A stretch of DNA of 64,000 nucleotides from Pseudobdellovibrionaceae bacterium (GCA_947462815.1 CANHQR010000001.1:32038-96037), one strand, 5' to 3'; counted from the first letter of the stretch, positions 3,637 through 33,036 are shown. Numbers and translations: made by a program. Notes: generated from the sequence alone by a model not told the origin.

Positions 3637-4804
3637 TCACGAGTACGTTCACAGCTCCGCCATCCGAGAAGCGAATAATGGCCTTGCGTTTCGCCTGAAT
3701 CGCCTGGATCTGATCGGCCCGAAGTCGAACACTGCGGGGCGGGTCGCTATCCACGGTGACTTCCAAGTCCACAGAGTCGAGAGCCTCAATGAGAATTTCC
3801 GTGGGTTTCGCCACTCGAGGAGTTGCGCTGGGTGAGGGCTTGGGCGAAGGGGCGGGTGTTGCTGTGGGTTGAGGCGCCGGGGTGGTGGTGGGACGCGGAG
3901 TTGGTGTAAGGGTTGATCGCGGTGAAGGCGTCGGGGCAGGCGTCGGAGATGGCGTCGCTGTAGCCCTCGGTGTCGATTTCGGCGTGGCGCTCGGTGAAGG
4001 TTGCGGAGTTGGTGACGCCGTGATTGGCGTGAGAGTTGGCCGCGGCGAGGGCGACGCGAGGGGTGACGCTGTGGGTGCGACCGTCGGCGAGCTTTCGGGC
4101 GAGGGCGCGAGGGTGCCATCCGTAGGAGTTGCACCGGGAACAGCGCTTGAGTCTTGAGGGTCTTGTGTGTTCCCGTTGCCTGTCGATTCGCCGTCATCAT
4201 CGTCTGCGGTATTCGCAGAGTCACCAGAAAGCGTCGACTCCTGGGGCGCACGCTCGCTTTCGTAAGAATCCATCTTTCCCTTAAAGAAAATGATCAGCCC
4301 GATCAGAATTACAACCAGGCCGCCGATCAAATATTTCGTCAGGCCGATTTGTCCACTGCGCGCCACCATCTCCACGGCTTGGTCAGGAGATCTCGGAACG
4401 GAAGCATTGTTCATCGGACTCATCGGCGTGGGATTTGTCGACTTGCTCGAGGTTTCGCGCTCCTGGCTCGGCTTATCCTCTTGGCCCACATTTTCTGTAG
4501 CTCGCGAGTTCTTTTCAGCAAGTTCGGCAGGAGGAATGGCTTTGGCTGATCCGGCGGGGTGAGCCAGTGTCGAGCCCATTTCCTCATGAAAGGTGCGCAA
4601 GATCTCTTCGACATCGAGCCCAAGATAAAGCGCGTAGCTTCGCACAAAGCCGCGCAGAAAAGTTTTTGGTGGCAAATTCTCCGCGATGCCTTCTTCCATC
4701 GCCGCGATGGTCTTTGTGGTGATCTTCGTGGCGAGCGAGACCTCCGCAATTGTCATTCGCTTGCGTTCGCGATTCTCCTTCAGAATTTGTCCCGTGATCT
4801 TCAT
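3575..4804 (-). CDS. rodZ: Cytoskeleton protein RodZ
   Basis: The N-terminal HTH (MTIAEVSLATKITTKTIAAMEEG...FLRGFVRSYALYLGLD) is followed by a single TM (LIGGLVVILIGLIIFF). A long P/T/S-rich linker leads to a C-terminal beta domain (ILIEALDSVDLEVTVD...VNVLVNG). Confidence 0.75.
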   Translation of the reverse strand: MKITGQILKENRERKRMTIAEVSLATKITTKTIAAMEEGIAENLPPKTFLRGFVRSYALYLGLDVEEILRTFHEEMGSTLAHPAGSAKAIPPAELAEKNSRATENVGQEDKPSQERETSSKSTNPTPMSPMNNASVPRSPDQAVEMVARSGQIGLTKYLIGGLVVILIGLIIFFKGKMDSYESERAPQESTLSGDSANTADDDDGESTGNGNTQDPQDSSAVPGATPTDGTLAPSPESSPTVAPTASPLASPSPRPTLTPITASPTPQPSPSATPKSTPRATATPSPTPAPTPSPRSTLTPTPRPTTTPAPQPTATPAPSPKPSPSATPRVAKPTEILIEALDSVDLEVTVDSDPPRSVRLRADQIQAIQAKRKAIIRFSDGGAVNVLVNGVDRGVPGDLGRPLRVEYP

Positions 4805-4844
4805 GCGTGTGACTTCCTCTCGACCTGCGGAGATGCGAACTCTA

Positions 4845-5768
4845 TCACTTTACGATTTCCAATAGACTCTTTGCGCGCTGAGCGTACTCCCCTTGGGGAT
4901 ACTTGCGGACTACATTTTCGAGGCGATCAACAGCTAGGGCGTTCTTCCCGAGTTTATAATGTACGAGCCCGGCAAAGTAGCTCGCCTCTTCATCTTGATT
5001 TTCTGCGCAGGCGGCCAACGCATTGTCGAGTGTCTGTGCCGCCGCCTGAAGGTCGTTCATTTCGAGCTGACACCGCCCGTGGAGCGTTTGTGCGTAGCAG
5101 TTTTGCCGATCGACTCGAAGAGCGGATTCGGTGGCGGTTCGGGCCTCACGAAAGTCACCCTTGCGAAAATGCGCTAAGGCAATGTTGTTCCAAGCTTTGA
5201 CGGGTGCCGGATAGGTCAAATCATCCAGAACACGCTTGGCATCCGCCACGGCCAAAGCATAGTCGCCCCGCTCGATGTGAATCCGCGCTCGATTGTTGAG
5301 AGCTTCCGAATACTGAGGTTGAATCTCAATGGCTCGATTGATGTGTTTCAGTGCGAGATCGAAGCGTTCCCGAACAAAATAGGTCAGAGCGAGATTGTTC
5401 TGAATCGTCGGATTGCGCGGATCGAGGCGTTGTGCTTCCAACAACTCACGCAGCGCAGCCGCATACTGCTGATTCTGGAAGAATCGTGTACCGGACTGTA
5501 AGCGCAAGACCGCGTCCTCTTGAGCCTTGCGTGAGTTCGAGGTCGACGAACACGAAGTTAAGAAACTCAAGAGAAGCAGGGCCGACCAGATTTTGAGATT
5601 CGAAGGTACGAAAAGACGTCCGCACGCGACTTCTTCAAGGAAGTCGACCGAATGCGCTCTCAGCCTTATCCATGTGCGGAAGATGGCAAGAAACATCGAC
5701 ATGCGAAAAATCGTAGCAGGACTTCTCTCAGCGAGCAAAATTTTGCTCGGCGAATTCACAGCTTGCAT
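4845..5768 (-). CDS. TPR-repeat lipoprotein, PilW/PilF-like
   Basis: Several TPR units are visible (AAALRELLEAQRLDPRN, YSEALNNRARIHIERGDYALAVADAKRVL and others). A lipobox-like LLLLSFLTSC is present, and the true start is probably internal, near residue 24 or later. The position between an RNA methyltransferase and rodZ matches the pilW context known in gammaproteobacteria. Confidence 0.6.
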   Translation of the reverse strand: MQAVNSPSKILLAERSPATIFRMSMFLAIFRTWIRLRAHSVDFLEEVACGRLFVPSNLKIWSALLLLSFLTSCSSTSNSRKAQEDAVLRLQSGTRFFQNQQYAAALRELLEAQRLDPRNPTIQNNLALTYFVRERFDLALKHINRAIEIQPQYSEALNNRARIHIERGDYALAVADAKRVLDDLTYPAPVKAWNNIALAHFRKGDFREARTATESALRVDRQNCYAQTLHGRCQLEMNDLQAAAQTLDNALAACAENQDEEASYFAGLVHYKLGKNALAVDRLENVVRKYPQGEYAQRAKSLLEIVK

Positions 5769-5798
5769 GTCGACCGGGGTAGCGGGTGCTGACCCCGA

Positions 5799-7034
5799 TC
5801 AGCTCTTGATTTCCCACACGGTGACGACCTCGACATGATCCGTGTGCGGAAACAAATCGAAGCTCTTTCCCGAGACCAAATCCAACTGTCGAATGCCGCG
5901 TAGGGACGTGAGGTCGCGAGCGAAAGTGTTGGGATCACAGCTCACAATGATGAGGTGGGTGAGGTCGCGACGACGAGCCAGGCGCTCGATGACTGTTTGG
6001 GACATACCCTGGCGTGGTGGATTGACTATGAAGATCCCGAGTTCGGAGTCTTCCCGATTTCGCTTGATCCAGGTTTCGACGTCATTGGAGTGAAAGGCCC
6101 AATCTCTCAGCCATTCCGATTGTTGTTTGTCCAACCAACGTCGAGCCTCGGCCTCACTGCTGCCGTGAGACTCGACAATTCTCAGCCTCCAAGGTGTTTG
6201 TAAGGTCTCGAAGATCTCGACCAAGGGCCTGGACCAGTTTCCGGATCCACCGTAGAGATCGTAAACTGTCCACGCACGACCTTTGTCGCGTTCTACGCGA
6301 TCGTGGATCGCTGCGCCGATGAATTTCTGAATGGCCAAATTCTGTTCGGCATTGACCTGGACAAATCCCGCTCCGGATTTCAATTCGGAGTTCTCAATTC
6401 GAACATCAATTTTGAGCTCGTGTTTGAGCTCTTGAGGCGGGTTCTTGGAACGCGCGAGCCTCGAACTCTGCGGCGCCACTGTCGCCTGACGCAAATTGGG
6501 CACCAAACTGCGTGCAAAGCCGATGGCTCCCTCTGGGCCGATCAGGCAGTCCTCGACGGGGACGAAATCGTGGGTGTTTCGAGTTCGAAAACCCACCTGA
6601 GCGGCCGCCGAACTCTTGCCAGGTCCCACATGCACACTCAGACGTTGACGATATCGCCAGATCTTTGGACTCGGGGCGCAGCTTTCGAGACGAAGAAGTT
6701 CGGCATCCGACAAGGACTTGGACTTCCTTAAAGTCGCATGAACAAGATCGGTTTTTTGTCGAAGCTGCTCGGCGTAGTCGATGTGTTGCCATGGGCATCC
6801 GCCACACAACTGGAAATGAGGGCAGGGAGGCACGACTCGCGCGGGAGAAGCCTCTACAATTTCGACCAGTTCACCGACGAAATGCCGTTTGTGGACTTCC
6901 GTCACGCGGACGCGAGCGAGTTCATTTGGAGCACCACCTTGAACAAAGATGACACGGCCATCTGGTGCACGACCAACAGCACCACCGTCACGACTCATGC
7001 GTTCAAACTTCACTTCAAACTCTTGGCCGATCAC
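5799..7034 (-). CDS. TRAM-domain RNA (uracil-5-)-methyltransferase, RumA/RlmD/TrmA family
   Basis: The N-terminal TRAM-like region (GRVIFVQGGAPNELARVRVTEVHKRHFVGELVEI) is followed by the Fe-S cysteine cluster CPHFQLCGGCPWQH. The C-terminal SAM-MTase core includes DLYGGSGNWS and IVNPPRQG. Confidence 0.75.
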   Translation of the reverse strand: MIGQEFEVKFERMSRDGGAVGRAPDGRVIFVQGGAPNELARVRVTEVHKRHFVGELVEIVEASPARVVPPCPHFQLCGGCPWQHIDYAEQLRQKTDLVHATLRKSKSLSDAELLRLESCAPSPKIWRYRQRLSVHVGPGKSSAAAQVGFRTRNTHDFVPVEDCLIGPEGAIGFARSLVPNLRQATVAPQSSRLARSKNPPQELKHELKIDVRIENSELKSGAGFVQVNAEQNLAIQKFIGAAIHDRVERDKGRAWTVYDLYGGSGNWSRPLVEIFETLQTPWRLRIVESHGSSEAEARRWLDKQQSEWLRDWAFHSNDVETWIKRNREDSELGIFIVNPPRQGMSQTVIERLARRRDLTHLIIVSCDPNTFARDLTSLRGIRQLDLVSGKSFDLFPHTDHVEVVTVWEIKS

Positions 7035-12269: not shown

Positions 12270-13436
12270 TCACATTCCTTTCACGGCCGCGACGATCTTC
12301 TTCGCGCCATCTGTGATGTCGTCGGCAGGCATAATGTTGAGGCCGCTCTCGGCCAGCAGCTTTTTGCCCAATTCCACGTTGGTGCCTTCCAGTCTGACCA
12401 CGGCGGGAACTTTCAGTCCCAACTCTTTGGTCGCCGCGATGACGCCTTCGGCGATGATGTCGCATTTCATGATGCCACCGAAGATGTTGACGAAGATGCC
12501 CTTAACGTTTGGGTCACGCAGGATAATTTTGAAAGCGTTGGTCACTTTCTCTTTGTTGGCACCGCCGCCGACATCCAAAAAGTTAGCGGGGCTACCACCG
12601 TGGAGTTTAATGATGTCCATTGTGGCCATCGCGAGGCCTGCGCCGTTGACCAGGCAACCGATGTTGCCATCGAGTTTAATGAAAGCGAGGTCGTACTTCG
12701 AGGCTTCGATCTCCGTCGGATCTTCTTCGGTCAAGTCGCGAAGTTCCATAATCTTGGATTGGCGGAAGAGCGCGTTGGAGTCGAAGTTCATCTTCGCATC
12801 GAGTGCAATCACATCACCCTCGGCGGTTTCGACGAGAGGATTGATTTCTGCGATTGAGCAGTCGCACTCCTCGTACGACTTGTAGAGGCCCATGAAGAAC
12901 TTTGCGGCCTTTGCTGCGACCTTTTCCGACATACCCACGGCAAAAGCGAGTTGGCGAGCCTGGAAGGGCATCAGCCCGACGGCGGGATCGACCTGCACGC
13001 GGTGGATTTTCTCAGGGTGCTTTTCGGCGACCTCTTCAATCTCCACGCCGCCTTCGGCCGAAGCCATCACGACCACGCGACCTGTTTTGCGATCGAGCAA
13101 AACCGCGACGTAGTATTCCTTCTTAATGTTACAGCCTTGCTCGATGTAGACCTTTTGAACTTCTTTGCCTTCGGGACCTGTCTGATGAGTGATCAGATTC
13201 ATGCCGATCATCTTTTTACTGAGGTCACGGACCTCTTCGGGCGATTTGGCCAGCTTTACGCCGCCGCCTTTGCCGCGCCCGCCTGCATGAATCTGAGCCT
13301 TCACGACCCAAAGCGATCCCCCCAGCTCTTTGGCTGCTTGGTAGGCATGCTCGGGTGATTCGGCCATACGACCGTTCAGCGTCGTGACGCCGTACTTTCT
13401 CAAGATTTCTTTCGCCTGATACTCATGAATATTCAT
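12270..13436 (-). CDS. sucC: Succinyl-CoA ligase subunit beta
   Basis: The 388-aa ORF begins [17 protein letters not shown] and has an ATP-grasp layout. Its stop lies 3 nt before sucD. Confidence 0.95.
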
Positions 13437-13499
13437 GATGTCCCCTGGTGTCCCGAAGGTAAAAAGGCGCCGATTAGAATTCAGCGCCCAAAGCTATGA

Positions 13500-14441
13500 T
13501 TAGAATTCGAGTTTTTTGAGTGCTTCGACAAGTTCTTGAACGGCCTTGATCGAATGATCCAAGCCCTTGCGCTCTTCATCATTGAGTTTCAGCTCGATGA
13601 CCTTTTCCAGACCTTTGCCGCCCAATTTACACAGCACGCCGATGAACAGGTTGTTCACGCCGTACTCGCCAGTCAGCAGTGCGGCACAAGGCAAAATACG
13701 CTGCTGATCTTTCAAAATCGCTTCGGCCATTTGCACGGCCGATGCAGCCGGTGCGTAGTAAGCGGAGCCTGTTTTCAACAAGCCCACGATTTCGGCGCCG
13801 CCGTTGCGTGTGCGGGTGACGATCGCGTCGATCTTCTCTTTCGGTAACATCTCGAGAAGCGGTACGCCGCCCACCGAGCAATGGCGAGGCATCGGCACCA
13901 TGGTGTCACCGTGACCGCCCAGGACGAAGGCCTGAACGTCTTTGACCGAAACGTTGCACTCTTCAGCGATGAAGGAGCGCATGCGGGCTCCATCCAAAAC
14001 GCCAGCCATACCCAAAACGCGCTCTTTCGGGAAACCCAACACGTCTTTGGCCACATAGGCCATGGCATCGAGAGGGTTCGAAACAACGATGACAACGGAC
14101 TGAGGAGCGTGCTGTTTCACGCCCAAGCAAACTTCCTTCATGATCTTCGCGTTCGTCGCCAGCAAATCATCGCGGCTCATACCGGGTTTGCGGGGAAGAC
14201 CGGCCGTGATGATGACCACATCTGAACCCGCAATGTCCGCATAGTTGCTCGTGCCTGTGATCCGCGAGTCGAACATTTCAACCGGCGAAGCCTCGAACAG
14301 ATCGAGTGCTTTACCTTTGGCCGCGCCATCGTTCACATCGAGCAACACCACGTCGCCCAATTCCTTCGCGGCGGCCCAGTGAGCGCAAGTCGAACCGACA
14401 AAGCCAGCGCCGATGACGGCAAGTTTTTTACGCTTATGCAT
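13500..14441 (-). CDS. mdh: Malate dehydrogenase (LDH-like family)
   Basis: The 313-aa ORF has [29 protein letters not shown] and GGHGDTMVP. Confidence 0.95.
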
Positions 14442-14487
14442 GTAAATCTCCTTAAGTTGTTCAATTCCAAAAATTCAAAATCGAAAA

Positions 14488-15735
14488 TTACATCTTCGAG
14501 ATGATTTCACCGCCGAACTCCGAGCACTTGAGCAGAGTCGCGCCCGGCATTTGACGGTGGAAATCATAAGTCACGCGTTTGGCGGCAATCGCGCCGGCGA
14601 GACCTTTTTCAATCAGGTTCGCAGCTTCGGTCCATCCCATGTACTCCAGCATCATCACGCCGGAGAGAATCACTGAGCCCGGATTCACTTTGTCTTGGCC
14701 AGCATACTTCGGGGCGGTTCCATGAGTCGCTTCGAAAACCGCGAAACCATCACCGATGTTGCCACCCGGAGCGATCCCGAGGCCTCCGACCTGAGCTGCG
14801 AGCGCGTCGGAAATATAATCACCGTTGAGGTTAGGAGTCGCGATGACGGAGTATTCGTCGGGTCGCAACAGTACCTGTTGGAACATGTTATCGGCGATAC
14901 GGTCCTTCACCAAGATCTTGCCGGCGGGCATTTTGCCGCCATGCACGTCCCAAAGCTCCTGTTCACTCACGGTGACGTCGGGGAACTCGGCCTTCGCCAA
15001 TTCATAGCCCCAATCTTTGAAGGCACCTTCAGTGAACTTCATGATGTTGCCTTTGTGCACAAGGGTGACCGAGGGCTTCTTGTACTTGATGGCGTATTCG
15101 ATGGCCTTGCGTACGAGGCGCTTCGTGCAGAATGCCGACATCGGCTTGATGCCAATCGCCGAGTTCTCGCGAATGGTTTTGCCATGCTTCTTCGCGAGAG
15201 CGATGAAGTCATTGGCCTCCGCGGATCCCGCTGTGAATTCGACCCCTGCGTAGACGTCTTCGATGTTCTCGCGGAAGATGGTCATGTCAACCTTCTCCGG
15301 CTCGCGAACCGGAGCCGGAACTCCGGGATAGTACTTCACCGGACGAACGCACGCATACAAGTCCAACTCTTTACGAAGAGCGACGTTGAGTGAGCGGATC
15401 CCTTTGCCGACGGGCGTTTCCAGCGGACCCTTGATCGAGACGACGAACTCTTTGATCGCGCTGAGAGTTTCTTCGGGGAAGTAGTTGCCGTTATAGACCT
15501 GCGTCGCCTTCTGACCGGCGTATACCTCGCACCAATGGATTTTGCGCTTGCCGCCGTAGGCTTTCGCAACAGCCGCATCGAAGACTTTGACCGAAGCCGC
15601 CCAAATATCAGCACCGGTACCGTCGCCTTCGATGAAAGTGACGATCGGCTGATCTGGCACTTCGAGTTTGCCGTTAGCGGCAATGCGAATTTTTTGTCCT
15701 TGAGTGGGAACCTTCACGTGTTCGTAGTTGGCCAT
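14488..15735 (-). CDS. icd: NADP-dependent isocitrate dehydrogenase (homodimeric type)
   Basis: The 415-aa ORF has [30 protein letters not shown] and NLNGDYISD. Confidence 0.95.
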
Positions 15736-15830
15736 GAATTCTGTCTCCTATCAGATCCGTTCAATCGATACTCAATTTTTGACCACTGTTCGTCTTGTCG
15801 ATTCGTCTCCGGGCGTTGTCCTCGAGCTTT

Positions 15831-15911
15831 ATTTCCGAACTTCGTTTCCGAGCCTCTGTTCCGAGCCTCTGTTTCGAGCCTCTGTTCCGAGCCTCTGTTC
15901 CGAGCCTCGTT
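15831..15911. repeat. Tandem array with a 13-bp period (about 6 copies) in the icd / Mla-operon divergent intergenic region
   Basis: I read this directly: atttccgaacttc | gtttccgagcctct | gttccgagcctct | gtttcgagcctct | gttccgagcctct | gttccgagcctc. It starts about 96 bp upstream of the icd start codon. Confidence 0.9.
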
Positions 15912-16196
15912 ATCGGGGTTCGCATCGTCAGGGGTGGAACCGACTCTCGATCTCACCGTTTCGTCGATTTCGTCCACGCACCAAAGAAACTCGTCGGTCT
16001 TCGGCGAACAGAGCTTGAAGCGATTCGTATTTCCCCGGAGAATTTCACGAAGAGTCGGGTCCTGACGCGCACCTCTCCATAGGCGACGGCGCGCGTTAGG
16101 CGGGAATCGTTTCGCTCAGTCGCAGTGACTGTTTAGTTCAGCTAAAGCCACTGGGCAAAAGGTAATTCTCGGAATGACTCATCGGGGGACCGAGTC

Positions 16197-16955
16197 GTGC
16201 AGCGCGCTTTGATCGAACTTCACCAAGTGAGTCTCGAAATCGAAGGCCGGGTGCTGCTTCGAAGTTTGAACCTCCAACTTTTTGAGGGCGAATCTTTGGC
16301 GCTGATCGGCCCGAGTGGCTCGGGAAAATCTCTTCTGCTTAAACTCATGGCAGGTTTGCTCGAGCCCACAGGCGGCGAAATTTGGGATCAAGGCCGACCA
16401 CGGTCTTCGATGAGTCCCGAGGAGAAACTGAGGTGGAGCCGCCGCCAAAGCATGTTGTTTCAGCGCAACGCATTGTTCGACTCGATGAGTTCACTAGAAA
16501 ACGTTATTTTTCAACAGGTTGAGTCGAGAGGTGTGGACTACGAGTCTGCTTCGCGACGCGCAACAACAACACTCGAAACTGTGGGCCTCGGACATGCGGC
16601 GAACTTGTACCCCGATGAGATCTCCGGAGGGATGCAAAAGCGGTTGGGTATTGCTCGCGCGATCGCTTTGGAACCGGAGTTGATTTTTTACGACGACCCG
16701 ACAGCCGGTCTCGATCCCATCACAAGTCGTAAAATCATCATGTTGATTCGGGAACTTCAGGTGCGACCGGGTCGAGCCCGTTCGACAATCGTGGTGGTGA
16801 CTAACGAAATGGCGCGGGCCTATCAAGTCGCGGACCGAATCGCCTTTATGGATCGAGGCGAACTGTTGGTGACAGGGACCGTGTCGGAAACTCAGGCACA
16901 TCAGGATCCACGAGTGCGACTCTTCATTCGCGGCGAAGCGGAAGGTCCACAGTGA
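16197..16955 (+). CDS. MlaF-like ABC ATPase, paralog 1 (non-canonical Walker B and H-loop)
   Basis: Walker A is GPSGSGKS, the Q-loop is MLFQ and the signature is ISGGMQKR. Walker B reads LIFYDDPTAGLD, with Asp at the catalytic-Glu position. The switch region reads VVVTNEM, with Asn where His is expected. The start is GTG. Confidence 0.8.
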   Translation: MQRALIELHQVSLEIEGRVLLRSLNLQLFEGESLALIGPSGSGKSLLLKLMAGLLEPTGGEIWDQGRPRSSMSPEEKLRWSRRQSMLFQRNALFDSMSSLENVIFQQVESRGVDYESASRRATTTLETVGLGHAANLYPDEISGGMQKRLGIARAIALEPELIFYDDPTAGLDPITSRKIIMLIRELQVRPGRARSTIVVVTNEMARAYQVADRIAFMDRGELLVTGTVSETQAHQDPRVRLFIRGEAEGPQ

Positions 16956-17749
16956 GTGTCGCTTCTTGGGATATCGAGTTTGATGGTCTGATCAAGCGCT
17001 TCGGTGAGCGCACCATTCTCAATGGCATCAGCTTTCGTGTCGCGCGCGGTGAAATCATTTTCATTCTGGGAACTTCGGGAACAGGCAAATCCGTACTGCT
17101 GAAGACACTGACGGGCCTTCTTCGAGCCGATGCCGGACGTGTCCTCGTGCAGGGACAAGATCTCACGTACCTCCAAGAAGAAGCTTACCTCGACGTTCGC
17201 CGCAAGTGCGGTATGGTCTTTCAACATCCAGCTCTGTTCGATTCGTTGACGATCGAAGAGAACATCGCCTTTGGCTTGCAGAGGCATCTCGGATTGAGTC
17301 TTGAGGCCGCGCGTCCGCGCGTTCGAGAGTGCTTGGATCTCGTCCATTTGGATTATGATGAATTGGCCGAGCTCTTGCCGGCGCAAATCTCCTACGGCAT
17401 GCAGAAGCGCGTGAGCTTGGCCCGCACGTTAGCGGTGCAGCCACAAATTCTGCTCTTTGATGAGCCCACGACTGGATTGGATCCGGTGACGACCAAGCAG
17501 ATCAATCGGCTCATTCTCGAGCTGTCGCGCAAACTGCAAACCACATCGATGGTTGTCAGCCATGACATGGATTGTGCCCTGGAGATCGCGGATCGCATCA
17601 TTGTGTTGGATCAGGGCCGGATCATTGAACAGGGTCGAGTCGATGAGGTGAAGAAGAGCCCGGTTCCCCTTGTCCAAGACTTTTTGGCCGAGGCTCTCGC
17701 CGGTCACGCGGAAACCACCTCCTCGGACTCGGGCGGAGGCCGCCCATGA
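16952..17749 (+). CDS. MlaF-like ABC ATPase, paralog 2 (canonical catalytic motifs, non-canonical signature)
   Basis: Walker A is GTSGTGKS, Walker B is ILLFDEPTTGLD and the H-loop is VVSHDM. The signature reads ISYGMQKR, with Tyr replacing the first Gly of SGG. A 4-bp GTGA overlap links it to the upstream gene. Confidence 0.85.
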   Translation: MSVASWDIEFDGLIKRFGERTILNGISFRVARGEIIFILGTSGTGKSVLLKTLTGLLRADAGRVLVQGQDLTYLQEEAYLDVRRKCGMVFQHPALFDSLTIEENIAFGLQRHLGLSLEAARPRVRECLDLVHLDYDELAELLPAQISYGMQKRVSLARTLAVQPQILLFDEPTTGLDPVTTKQINRLILELSRKLQTTSMVVSHDMDCALEIADRIIVLDQGRIIEQGRVDEVKKSPVPLVQDFLAEALAGHAETTSSDSGGGRP

Positions 17750-18522
17750 TCATGGCGCTTCAAGAAGTCGGACGATGCTTGCGGTTTGTCGCGGAGGCGT
17801 TGGACGTAGGTCGCCGAAAAGGCGTGTCCGGTCGCGAGGTAATGACGCAAATCTGGAAAGTGACCGCGCAGAGCCTTGGAACAACAGCCCTCGCCGGATT
17901 TTTTGTCGGTGCCATCATGGCCGTTCAGTTTGCATTGCAAGTGAAAGCCTATGGAGCGCTCGGTTATCTCGGGGGACTCGCGACAAGTGGAACGGTCAGG
18001 CAGGTCGGACCTCTCTTGATCGCCTTCATGTTGAGCGGCAAGGTCGGCGCGTTCACATCGGCCGAGTTAGGTACCATGCGTGTCACGGAGCAAATCGATG
18101 CCATTCGATGTCTGGGCTCCAACCCATTTCGTGAAATTATCTTGCCGCGAATGATCGCGATCTTTGTGGCGAGCTTCGCTCTCCTCGCCGCCGGCCTCTT
18201 GGCTTCGATAGGTGGGGGAATCTTGTTGGCTTCGTTGTTTGCGGGGATCAATCCGGACGAATACGTGCGGCACATTCCGACTCTGGTGGCGCCCGCCTCG
18301 GTCGCCATCGGACTGTTCAAATGCGCCGTCTTCGCGTTGATTCTCGCCAGCATTTGCACGTTTAAGGGTTACACGACCACAGGTGGGGCGAAGGGTGTGG
18401 GTCGAAGCGTTGTGCAAACCGCTGTCGCGACGATGGTGAGTATCGTCATCGCGGATTGGCTGACGAGTGTGATCGCCGAAGCCGTCATCGAGGTCGCGAT
18501 GGCCGCGCGGGGTGAAGGATGA
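17746..18522 (+). CDS. MlaE-like ABC permease, paralog 1
   Basis: The 258-aa polytopic ORF has the family motif MRVTEQIDAIRCLG. It has an ATGA overlap with the upstream ATPase gene. Confidence 0.85.
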   Translation: MIMALQEVGRCLRFVAEALDVGRRKGVSGREVMTQIWKVTAQSLGTTALAGFFVGAIMAVQFALQVKAYGALGYLGGLATSGTVRQVGPLLIAFMLSGKVGAFTSAELGTMRVTEQIDAIRCLGSNPFREIILPRMIAIFVASFALLAAGLLASIGGGILLASLFAGINPDEYVRHIPTLVAPASVAIGLFKCAVFALILASICTFKGYTTTGGAKGVGRSVVQTAVATMVSIVIADWLTSVIAEAVIEVAMAARGEG

Positions 18523-19280
18523 TCTCGAGTTCGCTGTCGCAAGGATTTCGCGTCTCCCTGCAGTTTTCCGCACTCGCCGCTCGCGTCGTGCTGGGTCTCG
18601 CCCAGCCCATTCGCTGGCGAAGCGTCTTTCAGCAAATCCACTTCATCGCCAACGAAAGCCTCAGCATCATTTTGTTCTGTGTTTGTGCGGCCGCGATGGT
18701 GACGATCATCGAAGCCAGCTTTCACATGAAGCTCGTCATCCAGAACGATTCCATGGTGCCGGGTTTTGCGTCGATGTTGATTTTGCGGGAGTTGGGCGCC
18801 GTGGTGACAGCGTTGTTGGTGACCTCGCGCGCCGGTGCCGGTATGGCCGCCGAGATCGGTAGCATGAAAGTGACCGAGCAAATCGATGCGCTGAGAATGT
18901 TGGGTTTGAACCCGATTCAGTTCTTGGTCGTGCCGCGATTCATCGCCTGTGTGGCGGCGGGTGCGATGTTGACGGTCGTCGCCAACATGGTGTGTTTGAT
19001 CGCCGCGATGGGAGTTTCTGTTATCAAATTGGGCTATACGACGGGGACGTATATGGAGCTGACTCGCCCATTTATTGAGCCCATGGATCTCTTGTTTTCG
19101 ACGATCAAGGGTGCGGCCTTTGGTGCGGCCATTCCACTATTCTCGTGTTTCTCCGGTTTCAATTGTCGCGAAGGGGCCGAAGGCGTCGGTTTGGCGACCA
19201 CGCAAGCTGTGGTCTCGAGCTCTGTGGCGATCATCATCATCGATTTCTTTTTAACTTTTATCTTCTCCTATTATTACTGA
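18519..19280 (+). CDS. MlaE-like ABC permease, paralog 2
   Basis: The 253-aa polytopic ORF has the motif MKVTEQIDALRMLG. It has an ATGA overlap upstream and is clearly diverged from paralog 1. Confidence 0.85.
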   Translation: MISSSLSQGFRVSLQFSALAARVVLGLAQPIRWRSVFQQIHFIANESLSIILFCVCAAAMVTIIEASFHMKLVIQNDSMVPGFASMLILRELGAVVTALLVTSRAGAGMAAEIGSMKVTEQIDALRMLGLNPIQFLVVPRFIACVAAGAMLTVVANMVCLIAAMGVSVIKLGYTTGTYMELTRPFIEPMDLLFSTIKGAAFGAAIPLFSCFSGFNCREGAEGVGLATTQAVVSSSVAIIIIDFFLTFIFSYYY

Positions 19281-19302
19281 CACTATCGGCGGAGGCGTCC
19301 CT

Positions 19303-20100
19303 ATGAGCGCAAACAAAAACACCTGGAGCCCTGAAACCAAAGTTGGGCTTTTGTTCATGCTTTCCGTCGCCTTGGTCGCGGCCTTCGCTTGGTATATCGG
19401 CGCCGCGAACCCATTCACCTCTTCGTATGAATTACGAGTGGGTTACAACTTTGCCGGCGGGATCGAAGTGGGTTCGCCGGTTCGTGTGATGGGCATCAAA
19501 GTCGGCAAAGTGATCCGGATCGAGTTTTCTCCAGAGCAAACGTCGGCGAACGGGGAAGAGGTCAAACTCACACTGACCTTGCGCATCTCCAAGGAAGCTT
19601 GGACGGCTGTCCGCCGAGATTCGCGCTTCTTTATCAATTTGGCGGGAGTTATCGGGGAAAAGTATGTGGAGGTCTCGCCGGGCTCAGTCCATCAACCTCA
19701 TTTTGTCTCGGGAGACTTCGTGCGGGGCGAGGACCCACCGCGCATCGATCAACTGATCTCGCAGAGCTACGGCTTAGCCGGCAAGCTCATCGACATGATC
19801 GAGAAGAATGAAGGCTCGATCACGGATACGCTCGATAAAATGAACTCTTTGGTCACAAATCTGAATAAGACTCTGGTCTTGCTTGAGAAGACCTCGAAGA
19901 ACAAAGAGTTCTCTGAAATTGTGACCAATGTTGGCGCGATAACGGGAGATTTGACCATTCTGACCTCCAAATTACGCGGACCCGAGGCGCAAAAGACTCT
20001 CGAATTGCTGCACCGTTTGGTTTGGCGCCTCGATAAGATGGATGAAGAGGCCATTCGTAAGTTTCTGCAAAAAGAAGGTATTCGCGCGCGGCTCTTTTAA
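19303..20100 (+). CDS. MlaD-like MCE-domain protein
   Basis: An N-terminal TM (VGLLFMLSVALVAAFAWYI) precedes an MCE beta-barrel region (YNFAGGIEVGSPVRVMGIKVGKV) and a helical C-terminal extension. Confidence 0.8.
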   Translation: MSANKNTWSPETKVGLLFMLSVALVAAFAWYIGAANPFTSSYELRVGYNFAGGIEVGSPVRVMGIKVGKVIRIEFSPEQTSANGEEVKLTLTLRISKEAWTAVRRDSRFFINLAGVIGEKYVEVSPGSVHQPHFVSGDFVRGEDPPRIDQLISQSYGLAGKLIDMIEKNEGSITDTLDKMNSLVTNLNKTLVLLEKTSKNKEFSEIVTNVGAITGDLTILTSKLRGPEAQKTLELLHRLVWRLDKMDEEAIRKFLQKEGIRARLF

Positions 20101-20276
20101 GCCACTTTGCCGCCCGATCAGCCTGCGTTCGAGCTCGCGTCGAAAATTTGACGGCAGAAAGCACGAAAGCTGATCAAAATGAGTCAAAATTCAGTCGCTC
20201 GGCAGTTGCGAGGCTGCCGTGAGGACCTTTGGTTATGGGTCGCGCCGCTTCGTCATGTCTGCAACAAGTGTTTATA

Positions 20277-20307
20277 GCAAAAAAAAACCCTCGATTGCTC
20301 GAGGGTT
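20277..20307 (-). terminator. Rho-independent terminator of the small lysine-rich gene
   Basis: On the minus strand the sequence reads AACCCTCGA-gcaa-TCGAGGGTT followed by a run of about 9 T. It lies 27 nt after the stop codon. Confidence 0.7.
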
Positions 20308-20333
20308 CCGAGTTTTCACTCAAAAGAAGCTGC

Positions 20334-20423
20334 TTACTTCTTCTTTGCAGTCTTTTTCTTCTTAGCAGCTTTCTTTGTTGTTTTTTTCTTAGCGGCTTTT
20401 TTTGTCGCTTTCTTCTTTGCCAT
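20334..20423 (-). CDS. Small lysine-rich basic protein (29 aa; KKAA-type repeats like histone H1 or AlgP tails)
   Basis: My translation is ATG GCA AAG AAG AAA GCG ACA ... = MAKKKATKKAAKKKTTKKAAKKKKTAKKK*. AGGAGGAG sits 7 nt upstream of the ATG and a strong terminator lies downstream. It falls below the 60-aa cut-off of the ORF track. Confidence 0.6.
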   Translation of the reverse strand: MAKKKATKKAAKKKTTKKAAKKKKTAKKK

Positions 20424-20692
20424 GTCTCGCTCCTCCTAGGATGAGTGCTCTTCGTTGAACAAGAAGACTTCCCTTACACAAAGGATAGCCCTGCGACACT
20501 GATCGTCAATAGAAAAAATAAACTTGAGACGAACAAAGTGCGATTTCTCGCAAAAAAAGTCCGGAAAGGTTCGAAATCGAGTCGAAAACGGCTCGAAATG
20601 ATTGTCCGACACGCGATGAAGTCGAAACTCACATCACTTCATCCACGCAAAGTGCTTCGATCCGCGCTCGTGAGTGTGATGAAGCATCGAAA

Positions 20693-21547
20693 ATGCTCGA
20701 GGACCTTGTGGAGGTGCTCATGTCGGCGCTATTTGTGGTCGTAGTTGTGCTGTTGTCGGTACTCGGATGCGCATCCGTAATACGAATTCTTGAGCTGCAT
20801 CGTCGATTCAACCTCATTCGCAACGAAGAGATGACGAAAATTGGCACTTCGGCACTTTTCATAGCGGGAATTCTCACGCATCAACGGCATCCGTTGTCTC
20901 TGTTCGAGGCGATTTTGATCATCGCATGCCTTCCGCTGGTCGTTTGGTTCGGGGTTCGACTCATTTTGCGTCGTCGATGGGATCAGATTGAAGCCTCCTT
21001 GCCCGAGTTGTTCAGTCGAATCGCGTTGCGAATGAAGATGGGCGCCTCATTTCGGTCGGCCGTCGAACAAATTGCCCATGAGCGAGCCGATGGAACGCAG
21101 TTGGGATGGTTGGCACTGCTTCAAAATGTGTCTTTTTCACCACAAAACGCAAACATTGCCGATGAACTCGCAAATCGAGGCTCGCTTTCAAGCGTGAGTC
21201 CACCTTCGGATGAAGAACTTCGCGCTTGGCCCTCATTTTTTCGAGATCTCGTGATTGAATTTAGAATTCTCGATCAAAGCTCGCGCGATGTCCTCAAGCG
21301 CGTCGAATTCTTGCGAGCCCAGCGCATGAGACTGAGACACTTTCGACGTAGGTCGAGACAAGCTTCTATGCAGGCGCGCGTGCAAAGCCGCGTGATGAGT
21401 ATCATGTTTGTGGCGCTGTCGATCTTCATGGCGGTGTTTGTCGGTTGGAGTGAGCTTCGGCCGGTTCTCCCCATCGCCTTGTTTCTCCAGATTTTGGGTC
21501 AACTCGCCTTCTATCGTATCGAACGAGGACTGAAATGGACCGTATGA
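20693..21547 (+). CDS. TadB-like T2SSF-domain inner-membrane platform protein
   Basis: The 284-aa ORF has N-terminal TM helices. LPELFSRIALRMKMGASFRSAVEQIA ... DVLKRVEFLRAQRMRLRHFRRRSRQASMQARVQSRVMSIMFVALSIFMAVF resembles the TadB/TadC T2SSF pattern (LPxxLxxLxxxLxAGxSLxxAL ... LxxLAxxLRxRxxLRRKxxAxxA + TM). This is motif-level recognition only. Confidence 0.5.
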   Translation: MLEDLVEVLMSALFVVVVVLLSVLGCASVIRILELHRRFNLIRNEEMTKIGTSALFIAGILTHQRHPLSLFEAILIIACLPLVVWFGVRLILRRRWDQIEASLPELFSRIALRMKMGASFRSAVEQIAHERADGTQLGWLALLQNVSFSPQNANIADELANRGSLSSVSPPSDEELRAWPSFFRDLVIEFRILDQSSRDVLKRVEFLRAQRMRLRHFRRRSRQASMQARVQSRVMSIMFVALSIFMAVFVGWSELRPVLPIALFLQILGQLAFYRIERGLKWTV

Positions 21548-21990
21548 GTCGTCTCAGTCCCATCTTAAGTCTGCTGATGGATCTGGAAACTGCCGTCGAG
21601 CGCGGAGAGTCGGTCGCCTACGCATTGCGAGCGATTCGATCCCGTCGACAGGCTCTTCACCAAACTCAGGAGATGGGGCTCAACTTGTGGATTGATGACC
21701 TGTTGCTGAGCTGGGAGCGCGGTAGGCCGGCTCGCGCGGTCTCGGCGCCCGGCGACATCTCCCTTCAGCTGGCTGAGATATTGGATGAAGGCTGGCGAGG
21801 TGCGAGTGTTCTTCGTCAGCTCAGTGATTTGCGGGCCTATGCGGAGGAACAAGCCGAGTCGGATTTGGAGAACTTCGTACAGGCTCTACCCTTGCGGTCC
21901 CTCATTCCGCTGCTGCTCTTCCAATTGCCGTCGCTGATGTTGGTGTTGCTTTGGCCGATCTTACAAAAGCTCGTGCGGGACCTTGGGTAA
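21535..21990 (+). CDS. Short TadC-like T2SSF-domain protein
   Basis: The 151-aa ORF has LMDLETAVERGESVAYALRAI and ends in ALPLRSLIPLLLFQLPSLMLVLLWPIL, like the terminal helix of T2SSF proteins. It overlaps the stop of the upstream gene (ATGA at 21544-21547). A GAGGA RBS is present. Confidence 0.45.
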   Translation: MDRMSRLSPILSLLMDLETAVERGESVAYALRAIRSRRQALHQTQEMGLNLWIDDLLLSWERGRPARAVSAPGDISLQLAEILDEGWRGASVLRQLSDLRAYAEEQAESDLENFVQALPLRSLIPLLLFQLPSLMLVLLWPILQKLVRDLG

Positions 21991-22015: not shown

Positions 22016-22255
22016 ATGCTGACATTGCCTCTCGCTTTATGCATATCGATTTTCTGCGGCCCGGCGGTCGGGATTGCTCAGATCCCGCAAGCTGCTGTCG
22101 TGATCAAGTACAGTCCGCCCTCTCCCGCGCTGAGGTTTGCTCAGCCGCAGACGAGAATTTGGGTGTGGAAGCCGCGAGTTTCAAAGCCTCAAGCCATAGG
22201 GCCTCAGGCCATAAAAACTAAGACCTCTGCAAAGCGAAGGCGGTGGTCGCGATGA
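22016..22255 (+). CDS. Small exported hypothetical protein
   Basis: Within track ORF 21983-22255 I prefer the ATG at 22016, preceded by AAGGGA. The signal-like N-terminus is MLTLPLALCISIFCGPAVGIAQ, and there is an internal duplication PQAIGPQAI. The stop overlaps the kinase ATG (ATGA). Confidence 0.35.
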   Translation: MLTLPLALCISIFCGPAVGIAQIPQAAVVIKYSPPSPALRFAQPQTRIWVWKPRVSKPQAIGPQAIKTKTSAKRRRWSR

Positions 22256-23043
22256 GGCTTCGCGGAGCATGGGGAGAGGTGGAGCTTCTTGATGAGGTCG
22301 CCGAAGGTTTTGAGGCTCGGGTTTACCGAGGTCGATGGGTCGACTTCAACCGCCAGGTCCGACGAGTCGCCATCAAACGACCATTGGATCTCAGTGTGAA
22401 TGGTCGAGTTCTTTGGGAAGCGCGTTGGACTCGGCAGCGCAAATTCCCCTCGCCGTATTTTGTGAAGCCCGTATTGAGAATGGAGTCCGACTGGGGCGAT
22501 TTATATGTCGAGCCGTGGATTCGAGGTGAGACCTTGTCGCAAATTCGTGCTCGTGACCCCAAATGGCTTGCGAGTGATGCCTTGGTCTTGCAGCTCGGTC
22601 GGCAAATGTTGCGGGCTTGGCGAAGCTTGCAGTCTGAGGGCCTCGTCCACGGCGATTTCTCGCCCCATAACGTCATGCTTGATGAGTCAGGCGGCTTGGC
22701 GATTCTGGATGTGCATGCGGGCGACGAGCCGGATCATCTCCGTTTGACGGCTGCCTTTGCGGCTCCGGAGCGATTGGCCGGAGAAATGGCTTCGTCGGCC
22801 AGTGATCTGTACTCTTTGGGCCGACTTCTCGCCTATTGCCAAGAGGGGCGTGAGTGCCAGGCCTTAGTTCATGAAGTTTGGCCGGGTTTGATGAGTGAGC
22901 AGCCGGCGAATCGGCATGCTCGCCCTCAGCGCCGACGTGTGCCACGACTGCACTGGATGCAAGCTCACGAGGAGTTTGTGAGCTTTGGCCTCGACAATTG
23001 TGCGTCGCGAGAGTCGAGTGAAAGAAATCTCGTGGACAGCTGA
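22243..23043 (+). CDS. Hanks-type Ser/Thr protein kinase-like protein (kinase domain only)
   Basis: The motifs are VAIKR (subdomain II Lys), LVHGDFSPHNVML (catalytic loop with HGD in place of HRD, Asn retained), ILDVH (DFG position), AAPERLAG (APE) and SDLYSLGRLL (subdomain IX). The likely ATG is at 22252. Confidence 0.65.
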   Translation: MVAMRLRGAWGEVELLDEVAEGFEARVYRGRWVDFNRQVRRVAIKRPLDLSVNGRVLWEARWTRQRKFPSPYFVKPVLRMESDWGDLYVEPWIRGETLSQIRARDPKWLASDALVLQLGRQMLRAWRSLQSEGLVHGDFSPHNVMLDESGGLAILDVHAGDEPDHLRLTAAFAAPERLAGEMASSASDLYSLGRLLAYCQEGRECQALVHEVWPGLMSEQPANRHARPQRRRVPRLHWMQAHEEFVSFGLDNCASRESSERNLVDS

Positions 23044-30397: not shown

Positions 30398-31483
30398 ATG
30401 CGAATGACCAAGTCTTTATCGCGAACTGGCGTCAGGTCTTTTTGGGGTGTGGTGTTCTTGATTGTAGGTCTTTCGATAGGCTGCACCAAGAAGTCGTCGA
30501 CCGATGCTCAAGGTGGCCAAGATCAGGATGAGTCGGGGAGCAAACTCCAAATTGGTCTCGTTTTGGATAAGGGCGGAAAGGACGATAAGTCATTCAACAC
30601 GGCTGCATGGGAAGGAACCCAGAGAGCTGTTCGCGAACTTGGCGTAAAGGTGAAAGACGTTGAGGCTCCTGACGATGCGGCGTTTGAGCCGGCCATTCGA
30701 ACTTTTGCGGAGCGTGGTTTACCTCTCGTTATTAGTGTGGGATTTGCGCAGGCGGACGCGTTGAAGAAGGTAGCCCCGCAATTTCCGAACACCAAGTTTG
30801 CGATCATCGATGCACAAGTTGATGCTCCGAATGTTGCGAGCTTGATGTTTGCCGAGCATGAGGGCTCTTATCTCGTCGGCTACTTGGCTGGATTGGCCTC
30901 AAGCACAAAAACCGTGGGCTTTGTCGGAGGCATGGAGACCGCGTTGATTCGCCGGTTTCTGGTCGCGTACGAGGCTGGGGCCCGTGCAGCGAACCCTCAG
31001 GTCAAGGTGTTGCACAACTTTGTCGGGATCAATATGACCGCGTGGGCGAATCCGACTCGTGGTAAGGAGTTGGCTTTGACGCAAATTGGTCAAGGCGCCG
31101 ATATCATCTTCCAGGCTGCGGGAGCATCGGGCCTCGGCGTGTTTGATGCAATCGCTGATACGAAGAACAAGAAGGTGTACGGAATCGGCGTCGATTCAAA
31201 TCAAAACTGGATCAAACCTGGAAAGATCATGACCAGCATGTTGAAGCGAGTCGACGTTGCGGTCTTTGATGTGATTCGCGAAGTGGCATCACAGAAGTTT
31301 GTACCCGGCGTTCGGTCCTTCGGATTGAAAGATAAAGGCGTCGATTATGCTGTCGACGAACACAACCGGAAGCTCATTGAGCCGCACCAGGCGAAACTCG
31401 AAAAGCTACGTGAAGATATTGTCGCCGGCAAAATCCAAGTTCCCGACTATTACCTGCAAATGAAGGAACAACCCAAAAAGTGA
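30398..31483 (+). CDS. BMP-family (Med/PnrA-like) ABC substrate-binding lipoprotein
   Basis: The lipobox is FLIVGLSIGC. The motifs are GLVLDKGGKDDKSFN, AIIDAQV and GIGVDSNQ. The track ORF starts at 30350; I prefer the ATG at 30398. Confidence 0.85.
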   Translation: MRMTKSLSRTGVRSFWGVVFLIVGLSIGCTKKSSTDAQGGQDQDESGSKLQIGLVLDKGGKDDKSFNTAAWEGTQRAVRELGVKVKDVEAPDDAAFEPAIRTFAERGLPLVISVGFAQADALKKVAPQFPNTKFAIIDAQVDAPNVASLMFAEHEGSYLVGYLAGLASSTKTVGFVGGMETALIRRFLVAYEAGARAANPQVKVLHNFVGINMTAWANPTRGKELALTQIGQGADIIFQAAGASGLGVFDAIADTKNKKVYGIGVDSNQNWIKPGKIMTSMLKRVDVAVFDVIREVASQKFVPGVRSFGLKDKGVDYAVDEHNRKLIEPHQAKLEKLREDIVAGKIQVPDYYLQMKEQPKK

Positions 31484-33036
31484 ATCCGCCGATTGTTGCC
31501 TTCCAGAATGTGTCGAAGCGCTATGGGAATTGTGTGTCTCTCTCCCAAGTTTCGGCGACTTTCGCCCCTGGGCAACTGCACGCGATCTTAGGTGAGAATG
31601 GAGCGGGAAAATCGACACTGATGAAGGTGCTCTTCGGGTTGGTTCGCCCGGATGAGGGTTCAATTTCCATTCAGGGAAGTACGAGATCATGGAGATCTCC
31701 AGCGGACGCCATTGCGGCGGGATTGGGAATGGTTCAACAGCACTTCACACTCGTGCCGTCACTCAGCGTGATTGACAACATTATGCTAGGTCGTGAGGGT
31801 GGGTGGCGATTGAACCGTGCGGCCGCTATTGCGGAACTTGAGGCAAAGTTGCCCGACGCGAGTTTGCGAATGAATTGGGATCGACGAGTTGAAGAGCTCA
31901 GTGTGGGTGAGCAGCAACGTGTGGAGATTCTCAAGTTGATCGCTCGTGACTCAAAAATCATGGTGCTCGATGAGCCCACTGCGGTGCTCGTCCCTCAGGA
32001 AATCGAGGCGCTGTTTACCTTGCTAAAGAAGCTACGCGATCAAGGTCGCAGCATTTTTGTGATCACGCACAAGTTATCCGAAGTGTTCCGTCATTGCGAT
32101 ACTTGGACTGTGCTTCGTTTGGGCCAGCTGGTGCAGCAGGGTGAAATTCGGGACACGTCGTTAGACGTCGTGGTGCGAGCGATGATGGGAGGCGAGCCGC
32201 CGCCGCCCATTCGACTCAATCCTCCTCGGGCAGAGATGAAGCTGTCTGAATTGCTGGAAGTTCGGTCGCTGACTTCTGGAAAAATTGGAAGAGGGGCCTT
32301 GCTCGATGTCAGTCTCAAAGTTCACGGTGGAGAAATCGTGGGCATTGCCGGAGTTGATGGCGCAGGTCAGTCCCTGCTTGTCGACTCGCTTCTTGGGCTT
32401 CATGAGTTTCACGGCGAAATTCTTTGGATGCAGCAAGCTCTGCGCGCTGGCCGGCGAGCGGACTGGGCTTTGATGAGTGAAGATCGACACCGGCAAGCTT
32501 TATGGATTGAAGAGTCCGTGCAGATGAATGCGGGTCTGGGCGTTGAAGTTCAGTTCTGTAGCTTTTCGAATTCGAAGACTCGAAAGACGTCGTTTCGAAC
32601 GGATCTATTGAGCCATTTTGAGGTACTTGATTTTGAACGATGGGGTCAGGACGTTGCCCGGTGGCTCAAGGAGTTTGACGTTCGTTTTCCCCATTTAGGT
32701 GAGCGAGTTTCACGGCTCTCGGGGGGCAACCAGCAAAAGTTGATTTTCGCACGAGAGCTAATGGGTCGCGATGTTCGTTTTGTGGTTGCCCATCAGCCTA
32801 CGCGCGGCGTGGATTTGGGTGCCATTCATCAGATTCATCAACGACTGGTCGAACTGAGAGACCGAGGTGTTGGTGTGTTGTTAATTTCAAGCGAACTCGA
32901 CGAGTTGATGGCCTTGTCGGATCGAATCATTGTCTTGGAGTCGGGTAAAGTAACCGCTCAATTCGATCGATGGTCAGAGAGCTCGCGACAGTTTGATCGA
33001 GCACAGATTGGCCGCGCCATGATCGGAGCGACGTGA
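31480..33036 (+). CDS. ABC transporter ATPase with two fused NBDs (CUT2/nucleoside type)
   Basis: The first NBD has GENGAGKSTL, LSVGEQQRVEI and VLDEPTA. The second has GVDGAGQS, LSGGNQQK and a degenerate Walker B. Confidence 0.9.
   Translation: MNPPIVAFQNVSKRYGNCVSLSQVSATFAPGQLHAILGENGAGKSTLMKVLFGLVRPDEGSISIQGSTRSWRSPADAIAAGLGMVQQHFTLVPSLSVIDNIMLGREGGWRLNRAAAIAELEAKLPDASLRMNWDRRVEELSVGEQQRVEILKLIARDSKIMVLDEPTAVLVPQEIEALFTLLKKLRDQGRSIFVITHKLSEVFRHCDTWTVLRLGQLVQQGEIRDTSLDVVVRAMMGGEPPPPIRLNPPRAEMKLSELLEVRSLTSGKIGRGALLDVSLKVHGGEIVGIAGVDGAGQSLLVDSLLGLHEFHGEILWMQQALRAGRRADWALMSEDRHRQALWIEESVQMNAGLGVEVQFCSFSNSKTRKTSFRTDLLSHFEVLDFERWGQDVARWLKEFDVRFPHLGERVSRLSGGNQQKLIFARELMGRDVRFVVAHQPTRGVDLGAIHQIHQRLVELRDRGVGVLLISSELDELMALSDRIIVLESGKVTAQFDRWSESSRQFDRAQIGRAMIGAT

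Follow-up and report, generated by a model that had tools for sequence, protein, structure and literature searches.

The window analyzed here, a 64,000-nucleotide stretch of DNA from Pseudobdellovibrionaceae bacterium (GCA_947462815.1 CANHQR010000001.1:32038-96037; positions are counted from its first letter), carries at 16197–20100 a five-gene operon for two different ATPases (F1 and F2), two different permeases (E1 and E2), and a protein with a single MCE domain (D; table 1). We put the probability at about 0.8 that the five proteins form one MCE/Mla-type ATP-binding cassette (ABC) lipid transporter, composed of an F1/F2 heterodimer, an E1/E2 heterodimer, and a ring of D. Three substitutions in conserved motifs of the ATPases map to the same composite ATP site, and the other site is predicted to be fully canonical. 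We take the operon to specify a real and deeply conserved asymmetric MCE transporter. Transporters of the MCE/Mla kind have a central part in moving lipids between the two membranes of Gram-negative bacteria, mycobacteria, and chloroplasts, and there is still debate about how much ATP a cycle uses and in which direction transport runs. All MCE/Mla structures matched in this study have two copies of a single ATPase, either MlaF or MceG.

Motifs were assigned from HMMER alignments to solved MlaF chains of Acinetobacter baumannii and Escherichia coli, and nucleotide coordinates were verified by translation. In F1, LIFYDDP falls on (L/I)(I/M)(M/F)(Y/F)DEP of MlaF, which puts Asp167 at the position of the catalytic Glu, and VVVTNEM falls on (I/V)VSHDV, with Asn203 in place of the switch His of the H-loop; the F1 signature, ISGGMQ, is canonical. 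F2 has a canonical Walker B and H-loop in alignments to Protein Data Bank (PDB) chains, and its signature ISYGMQ aligns with LSGGE/FSGGQ of other ABC proteins, with Tyr148 replacing the first Gly. Walker A and the Q-loop Gln are retained in both. In a head-to-tail dimer of nucleotide-binding domains (NBDs), each subunit presents its Walker A, Walker B, and H-loop to the signature of its partner. Because of this established geometry, Asp167 and Asn203 of F1 and Tyr148 of F2 are predicted to share one composite site, leaving the second canonical, just as an earlier note made from the DNA sequence had proposed when it described the motifs of both ATPases. That note had also raised the objection that these residues might be common in active, homodimeric MlaF proteins; the aligned MlaF proteins of E. 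coli and A. baumannii have DEP, SHD, and SGG. The operon therefore has the pattern of degenerate-site ABC proteins: two distinct NBD polypeptides are encoded together, Glu and His are lost in F1 alone, and the deviant signature is in its partner F2.

The substitutions are conserved. Counts were made on the best 120 homologs listed for each ATPase, a set that for F1 extends down to ∼51% identity. DDP is present in all 120 homologs of F1, the tabulated H-loop variants all have Asn, and S-G-G-M-Q, TAGLD, Walker A, and the Q-loop are invariant. Binding residues persist across F1 homologs (the Lys of Walker A, the Asp that binds Mg, and the Gln of the Q-loop), and the preservation of GK[ST] in all 120 suggests that F1 probably still binds nucleotide. 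Likewise, S-Y-G-M-Q occurs together with DEP and SHD in 120 of 120 homologs of F2. Scanning GTDB with one genome for each species uncovered at least 547 relatives, of which the best 80 loci were examined. All 80 are labeled Bdellovibrionota or Oligoflexia, except two metagenome-assembled genomes labeled Proteobacteria and Bacillota, and the relatives include complete chromosomes of Bdellovibrio bacteriovorus. The gene order F1-F2-E1-E2-D is kept at every one of these loci with sufficient DNA. Both ATPase genes are carried by 78 of the 80 loci, and the joint state (DDP, N, and SGG in F1 with SYG, DEP, and H in F2) was read in both genes in 73; loci without such a reading are fragments, misses of the regular expression, and distant variants. 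Orthologous operons with canonical E, H, and G, which would have spoken against the proposal, were looked for and the D/N/Y triad was found instead in those 73 loci. Strain noise and assembly artefact are ruled out by the conservation across homologs, loci, and independent assemblies.

The five subunits do not diverge at the same pace. Mean identity over 61 loci is 51.7% for F1, 63.4% for F2, 64.1% for E1, 61.0% for E2, and 59.5% for D. F1 is the fastest evolving of the five, as would be expected under relaxed constraint. The two ATPases share 37% identity and the two permeases 26%, and in a neighbor-joining tree, computed without support values and to be read as a rough guide, F1-type and F2-type proteins fall in separate deep clades. 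Both duplications therefore appear to be old, with the asymmetry reaching into the membrane part of the transporter.

In distant relatives, the same site is degraded by other residues. Searched exhaustively, a set of 1.84 billion representative proteins yielded F1-type proteins at 40–47% identity that have DDP with Ser, Thr, Gly, Asn, or His in the H-loop. The five-gene operon recurs at loci L082 and L083, with DDP and a His-to-Ser change in F1 and an F2 signature of LSFGMQ or LSFGVQ. The operon at L085 is also of this type, with DDP and a retained His in F1 and LSFGMQ in F2. At L086, an F1-type gene (DDP, His kept) is followed by two E genes and a gene for a barrel-like protein, and the F2-type signature is FGDGM, where Gly is replaced by Asp. 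In the distant operons examined, the change of Glu to Asp in Walker B is always paired with loss of the signature Gly in the partner, while the replacing residues vary. Variation of this sort is expected once a site has been freed of catalytic constraint, and would be the behavior of a true degenerate site.

Two side observations concern these searches. The divergent F2-type ATPase of L086 (95–838, minus strand) lies 2 kb upstream of the F1-type block (3072–6093), and that block lacks an MCE gene, contains two MlaE genes, and encodes a barrel-like protein of 223 aa. The search of representatives also returned fused, tandem MlaF-like NBD-NBD proteins of 546–581 aa (P0241–P0244, P0262, and P0313). 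Both of their halves have a canonical Walker B and H-loop, and the signature of the second half has lost its first Gly and reads ISSGQ, ISNGE, or VSAGE. On the one contig examined, the fused gene has no MlaE or MCE gene nearby.

Pfam profiles and the open reading frames (ORFs) agree on the gene content, which had been read from the DNA as two MlaF-like ATPases, two MlaE-like permeases, and one MlaD-like protein. The ABC_tran profile matches F1 (3e-30) and F2 (4e-34), MlaE (PF02405) is spanned in full by both E1 (1.3e-57) and E2 (3.3e-60), and MlaD/MCE (PF02470) matches D (7.8e-17). The operon thus has an MlaE permease, an anchored MCE protein, and a co-encoded ABC ATPase, which together define an MCE-type ABC transporter, and both ABC_tran genes are directly upstream of the permease genes and overlap their neighbors. 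Among PDB entries, F1 is matched best by MlaF from A. baumannii and E. coli and E1 by MlaE from Pseudomonas aeruginosa, and a TEQID segment is kept in both permeases (18085–18099 in E1 and 18873–18887 in E2). The top NCBIfam model for F1 is MlaF. However, all equivalog cut-offs are widely missed: the ATPases reach only 168.9 (F1) and 168.5 bits of the 441 set for MlaF, the permeases only 118 and 148 of the 315 set for MlaE, and D only 60.6 of the 135 set for MlaD. We therefore regard the five proteins as members of MCE systems, but not as orthologs of the E. coli Mla proteins. A public protein, P0121, is 100% identical to F2, and public annotation of the operon proteins is no finer than "ABC transporter ATP-binding protein" and "MlaD family protein."

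Start/stop overlaps of 4 bp join F1 to F2 (GTGA at 16952), F2 to E1 (ATGA at 17746), and E1 to E2 (ATGA at 18519), and 22 bp separate E2 from D. The overlaps, which the earlier note had taken as translational coupling of the genes, are real in the window, but such coupling is not universal because F1 and F2 are split in many Bdellovibrio genomes. No STAS/MlaB or MlaC-like gene is present in the operon, as the note had said; this holds for the five genes and not for the genome. Within the window, no MlaB, MlaC, or outer-membrane partner was found adjoining the operon, the absence of MlaB, MlaC, and MlaA being a local one; the ORFs downstream are kinase-like or without a Pfam match. When the five proteins were used to search the window for paralogs, no further MlaE or MCE genes were found, and the only matches were unrelated ABC ATPases (31480–33036, 52521–53315, and 59683–60417).

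In the transporter that we infer, F1 and F2 would assemble as a heterodimer, one of two sites would have lost hydrolysis, the substrate would be a lipid, D would be a hexamer, and contact might be made with the outer membrane. The consensus site would be formed by Walker A, Glu171, and His204 of F2 together with ISGGMQ of F1, and would hydrolyze ATP and drive the cycle. The degenerate site would be formed by Walker A, the Q-loop, Asp167, and Asn203 of F1 together with the Tyr148 signature of F2. ATP is probably still bound there, and would be hydrolyzed poorly or not at all. As in heterodimeric exporters, this site may act as a hinge that keeps the two ATPases in contact and tunes the cycle allosterically. 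The permease heterodimer would be capped by the D ring, presumably a hexamer.

Several observations weigh against this interpretation and bear on different parts of it. Asp167 keeps a carboxylate, so residual hydrolysis is possible, and His is kept in the H-loop of F1-type proteins at L085 and L086, which makes the degeneracy graded. In many Bdellovibrio genomes, F1 and F2 are separated by 0.4–6.7 kb of unrelated genes, with the motifs persisting, and the F1-type ATPase gene at L081:8001–8780, which has DDP and retains the His, is an orphan, the 8 kb upstream and the 5 kb downstream of it containing neither an MlaE nor an MCE gene. Lastly, the oligomeric state of D and the substrate are predicted by homology only.

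The first of these points would be accounted for if the substitutions are tolerated and both ATP sites hydrolyze, so that two different ATPase subunits serve a functionally symmetric transporter. The retained carboxylate and the His of some distant F1-type proteins are consistent with it. But every deviation falls in one composite site and the other is canonical and nearly invariant, and the deviant positions vary among distant clades (N/S/T/G and Y/F/D), as expected after catalytic constraint has been lost. Furthermore, the degenerate site of the exporter TM287/288 likewise has an Asp in Walker B and a deviating signature that fails to close on nucleotide, and makes no measurable contribution to ATPase activity (PMC5216877). 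The likeness to heterodimeric exporters, proposed from the DNA at the outset, is borne out by this site. We therefore consider symmetric activity unlikely, if the best placed of the alternatives.

The separation of F1 from F2 would also fit two transporters, F1₂E1₂ and F2₂E2₂, or alternative assemblies that share D. In the Bdellovibrio genomes with inserts, F1 is transcriptionally separable from the remaining genes, and the orphan at L081 shows that an F1-like gene can occur alone. However, a homodimer of F1 would lack the catalytic Glu and His in both sites and one of F2 would have Tyr in both signatures, and only an F1/F2 heterodimer is predicted to yield a fully canonical site; it is for this reason that we favor the heterodimer. 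In addition, the operon has a single MCE gene, its five genes keep their order at all loci with sufficient DNA, and the substitutions in the two ATPase genes co-occur, all of which argue for a single complex, as had been claimed before the survey, and leave separate transporters with little to recommend them. It is more improbable still that F1 is a decaying or nonfunctional duplicate, or that its motif changes are sequencing or assembly errors, since, despite its rate of evolution, its ORF is intact, its Walker A, Q-loop, signature, and D-loop do not vary in 120 homologs, and the same changes recur in independent assemblies among at least 547 species genomes, complete isolate genomes included.

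The inserts between F1 and F2 differ in content. At L009 (8787–12668), the insert encodes a PolX/PHP-like protein of 576 aa and a PLD-like protein of 322 aa, and at L051 (8773–12140) it encodes, on the opposite strand, a 936-aa secreted protein rich in Ala and Thr. Inserts are also present in L012, L014, L016, L029, L052, L067, and L078.

The asymmetric transporter differs from each of the characterized systems with which it shares parts. The MlaFEDB complexes of E. coli, A. baumannii, and P. aeruginosa (PDB 6XBD, 6ZY2, 7D06, and 7CH8) have in common with it an MlaE-fold permease, an MlaF-like ATPase, and a single-MCE protein anchored by a transmembrane (TM) helix, and among solved structures they match F1, E1, and E2 best by sequence and D best by fold. 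Their subunits are identical (F₂E₂) and both sites are canonical, whereas the operon encodes two different ATPases and permeases. Relative to the canonical Mla pathway, similarity is below equivalog level, no MlaB or MlaC is encoded in or beside the operon, and the predicted core is not a homodimeric F₂E₂. In E. coli, MlaB and a C-terminal "handshake" extension of MlaF stabilize MlaF on the complex (PMC7367683). The operon has neither MlaB nor the extension, and D has ∼110 extra helical residues. F1 ends at a position equivalent to residue 251 of E. coli MlaF, where the handshake extension begins, and the tail of F2 is not conserved. With no extension and no MlaB in the operon, a permanently occupied degenerate site may take over stabilization of the dimer from MlaB and the handshake, which is speculation.

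The Mce1 system has a heterodimeric permease (YrbE1A/YrbE1B), a homodimer of MceG, and six Mce proteins (PMC10792529). In its structures (PDB 8FEE/8FEF), the heterodimeric MlaE-type permease and the MCE proteins with long helical C-terminal regions resemble what is predicted here, but one ATPase is present in two copies and there are six MCE proteins, as opposed to two ATPases and one MCE gene. The Mce heterohexamer with an MceG homodimer, typical of mycobacterial Mce systems, has no counterpart in the operon. By PDB matches, E1 and E2 are closer to proteobacterial MlaE than to YrbE1A or YrbE1B and, therefore, the permease duplication looks independent of that in Mce1. Since an MCE system with a heterodimeric permease has been described before (YrbE1A/B; PMC10792529), the new element is the asymmetry of the ATPases.

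In that respect, the operon is most like the heterodimeric type IV exporters TM287/288, BmrCD, LmrCD, and TAP1/2, in which the same triad logic is confined to one composite site. The degenerate sites of TAP1/2, LmrCD, and CFTR are well known. Type IV exporters have an unrelated membrane fold and direction logic and NBDs fused to their TM domains, so the likeness is one of mechanism and not of family membership. Loss of the catalytic Glu has been termed the hallmark of degenerate sites (PMC7544095).

Veillonella parvula MlaEFD, for which a "bridge" model has been proposed, is similar in having a minimal core of E, F, and D that lacks MlaB and MlaC, and in the C-terminal extension of its MCE protein. 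There, MlaD itself carries the barrel as a fusion, and the system is described with one E and one F (PMC10665443), whereas relatives of the operon encode the barrel in a gene of its own, which is absent from the window, and the ATPases and permeases are duplicated. A phylogenomic survey of Mla mentions duplications of MlaDE only (PMC10665443). In line with the suggestion that this asymmetry is undescribed for MCE transporters, the full-text literature searched yielded no description of an MCE system with two ATPases or a degenerate site, which is absence of evidence only. Separately, a Tn-seq supplement (PMC6561027) lists in B. bacteriovorus 109J an "organic solvent" cluster of three genes (EP01_RS00890–00900), for a substrate-binding protein, an ATPase, and a permease. 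Going by this annotation, Bdellovibrio appears to have, in addition to the five-gene system, a conventional MlaDFE-like one with a single ATPase.

An asymmetric MCE transporter offers ways to address the questions raised by the symmetric ones. With one catalytic and one noncatalytic site, it has a natural, built-in means of asking how many ATP are used per transport cycle. It also allows one to ask whether the halves of the permease differ in their jobs and what stabilizes the ATPase dimer without MlaB. To our knowledge, the degenerate-site design has so far been described mainly for exporter-type ABC proteins. The asymmetry would extend the design to the MlaE-type fold and imply that it arose there independently and convergently.

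The C-terminal region of D and the genes that follow D in relatives bear on how the transporter might reach the outer membrane. The AlphaFold model of D has a mean predicted local distance difference test (pLDDT) score of 66.8, with values of 70–87 in the TM helix and MCE barrel and 50–60 in the C-terminal helices, and it comprises the TM helix and the MCE barrel, one helix of 51 residues, and three shorter ones. Foldseek matches of the model are MlaD and Mce1A–F, and D is conserved over its full length (∼70% identity). In 35 related loci, the gene directly after D encodes a protein of ∼210 aa with a signal peptide, a YYF terminus, and no Pfam match, and in the same slot after the MCE gene, L082:10642–11175 encodes a PF13505 OMP_b-brl protein. 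In the window, tblastn gave no match to the barrel-like gene, even at E = 10, and D is followed by a gap of ∼590 bp (20101–20692) without a convincing ORF, as is also the case in the close relative L003. The barrel-like gene hints at a trans-envelope arrangement and is a lead only.

A bolder reading combines these threads. The operon may represent an unrecognized class of MCE system, asymmetric in its ATPases and its permeases alike, in which one site hydrolyzes ATP and the other is permanently occupied, replacing stabilization by MlaB and the handshake, and in which the tail of D and a dedicated small outer-membrane barrel, whose gene is a neighbor in most relatives, form a trans-envelope lipid bridge; we offer this tentatively and think it less likely to be right than wrong as a whole. 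The class would be found in Bdellovibrionota and some related uncultured lineages, where the bridge may be linked to the envelope remodeling of predatory bacteria.

The matches of D also include chain I of the recently solved structure PDB 13hr ("Mce/MlaD domain-containing protein," 312 aa, 8 chains), which aligns with residues 14–171 of D (E = 1.7e-4). No MlaE chain of 13hr was among the matches to E1 or E2.

Table 1. Coordinates of the operon, its ATPase motifs, the regions of D, and examples of the gene that follows D in relatives (window positions unless a locus is named).
Feature	Position	Strand	Basis
F1, MlaF-like ABC ATPase with degenerate catalytic motifs, 252 aa, GTG start	16197..16955	+	ORF, Pfam
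F1 Walker A GPSGSGKS, intact	16308..16331	+	GK[ST] in 120/120 homologs
F1 signature ISGGMQ, canonical	16620..16637	+	Aligned to LSGGM of MlaF; S-G-G-M-Q in 120/120 homologs
F1 Walker B LIFYDDP; catalytic Glu to Asp167 (16695-16697)	16680..16700	+	Aligned to DEP of MlaF
F1 H-loop VVVTNEM; switch His to Asn203 (16803-16805)	16791..16811	+	Aligned to SHD of MlaF
F2, ABC ATPase, catalytic motifs canonical, signature deviant, 265 aa, GTG start	16952..17749	+	ORF, Pfam
F2 signature ISYGMQ; first Gly of LSGGQ to Tyr148 (17393-17395)	17387..17404	+	PDB alignments
F2 Walker B ILLFDEP, catalytic Glu171 (17462-17464)	17447..17467	+	PDB alignments
F2 H-loop MVVSHDM, His204 (17561-17563)	17549..17569	+	PDB alignments
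E1, MlaE-family permease, 258 aa	17746..18522	+	ORF, Pfam
E2, second, divergent MlaE-family permease, 253 aa	18519..19280	+	ORF, Pfam
D, single-MCE-domain protein, 265 aa	19303..20100	+	ORF, Pfam MlaD
D N-terminal TM helix (residues 10-34)	19330-19404	+	AlphaFold model
D MCE domain	19423-19725	+	Pfam MlaD, AlphaFold model
D helical C-terminal region, ∼110 residues	19744-20073	+	AlphaFold model
Gene after D (∼210 aa) in relatives, examples	L006:11837-12514, L013:11819-12472, L015:11828-12463		

The operon is flanked by genes of other functions. Divergently upstream, on the minus strand, are the tricarboxylic acid cycle genes sucC, mdh, and icd (12270–15735, with icd at 14488–15735). At the distant locus L085, mdh-sucC-sucD (2904–5984) is directly upstream of F1, and the presence of mdh-suc genes at both places indicates that the neighborhood is old. 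Between icd and F1, a 13-bp tandem repeat, TTCCGAGCCTCTG, is present in ∼5 copies with a 96% match (15823–15908). The rest of the window has no copy of it (4 matches versus 0.2 expected), and it may be a regulatory array. A scan of 15700–20800 for promoters and terminators found nothing above shuffled expectation. Downstream of the operon and syntenic with it are two overlapping genes for membrane proteins without a Pfam match (20693–21547 and 21535–21990). The first has relatives downstream of D in 48 loci, and at the position of the second, 26 loci have a gene of ∼145 aa, for which no sequence match to the ORF in the window was detected. The pair is followed by an ORF for a 266-aa protein-kinase-like protein (22243–23043; Pkinase, 2e-10).

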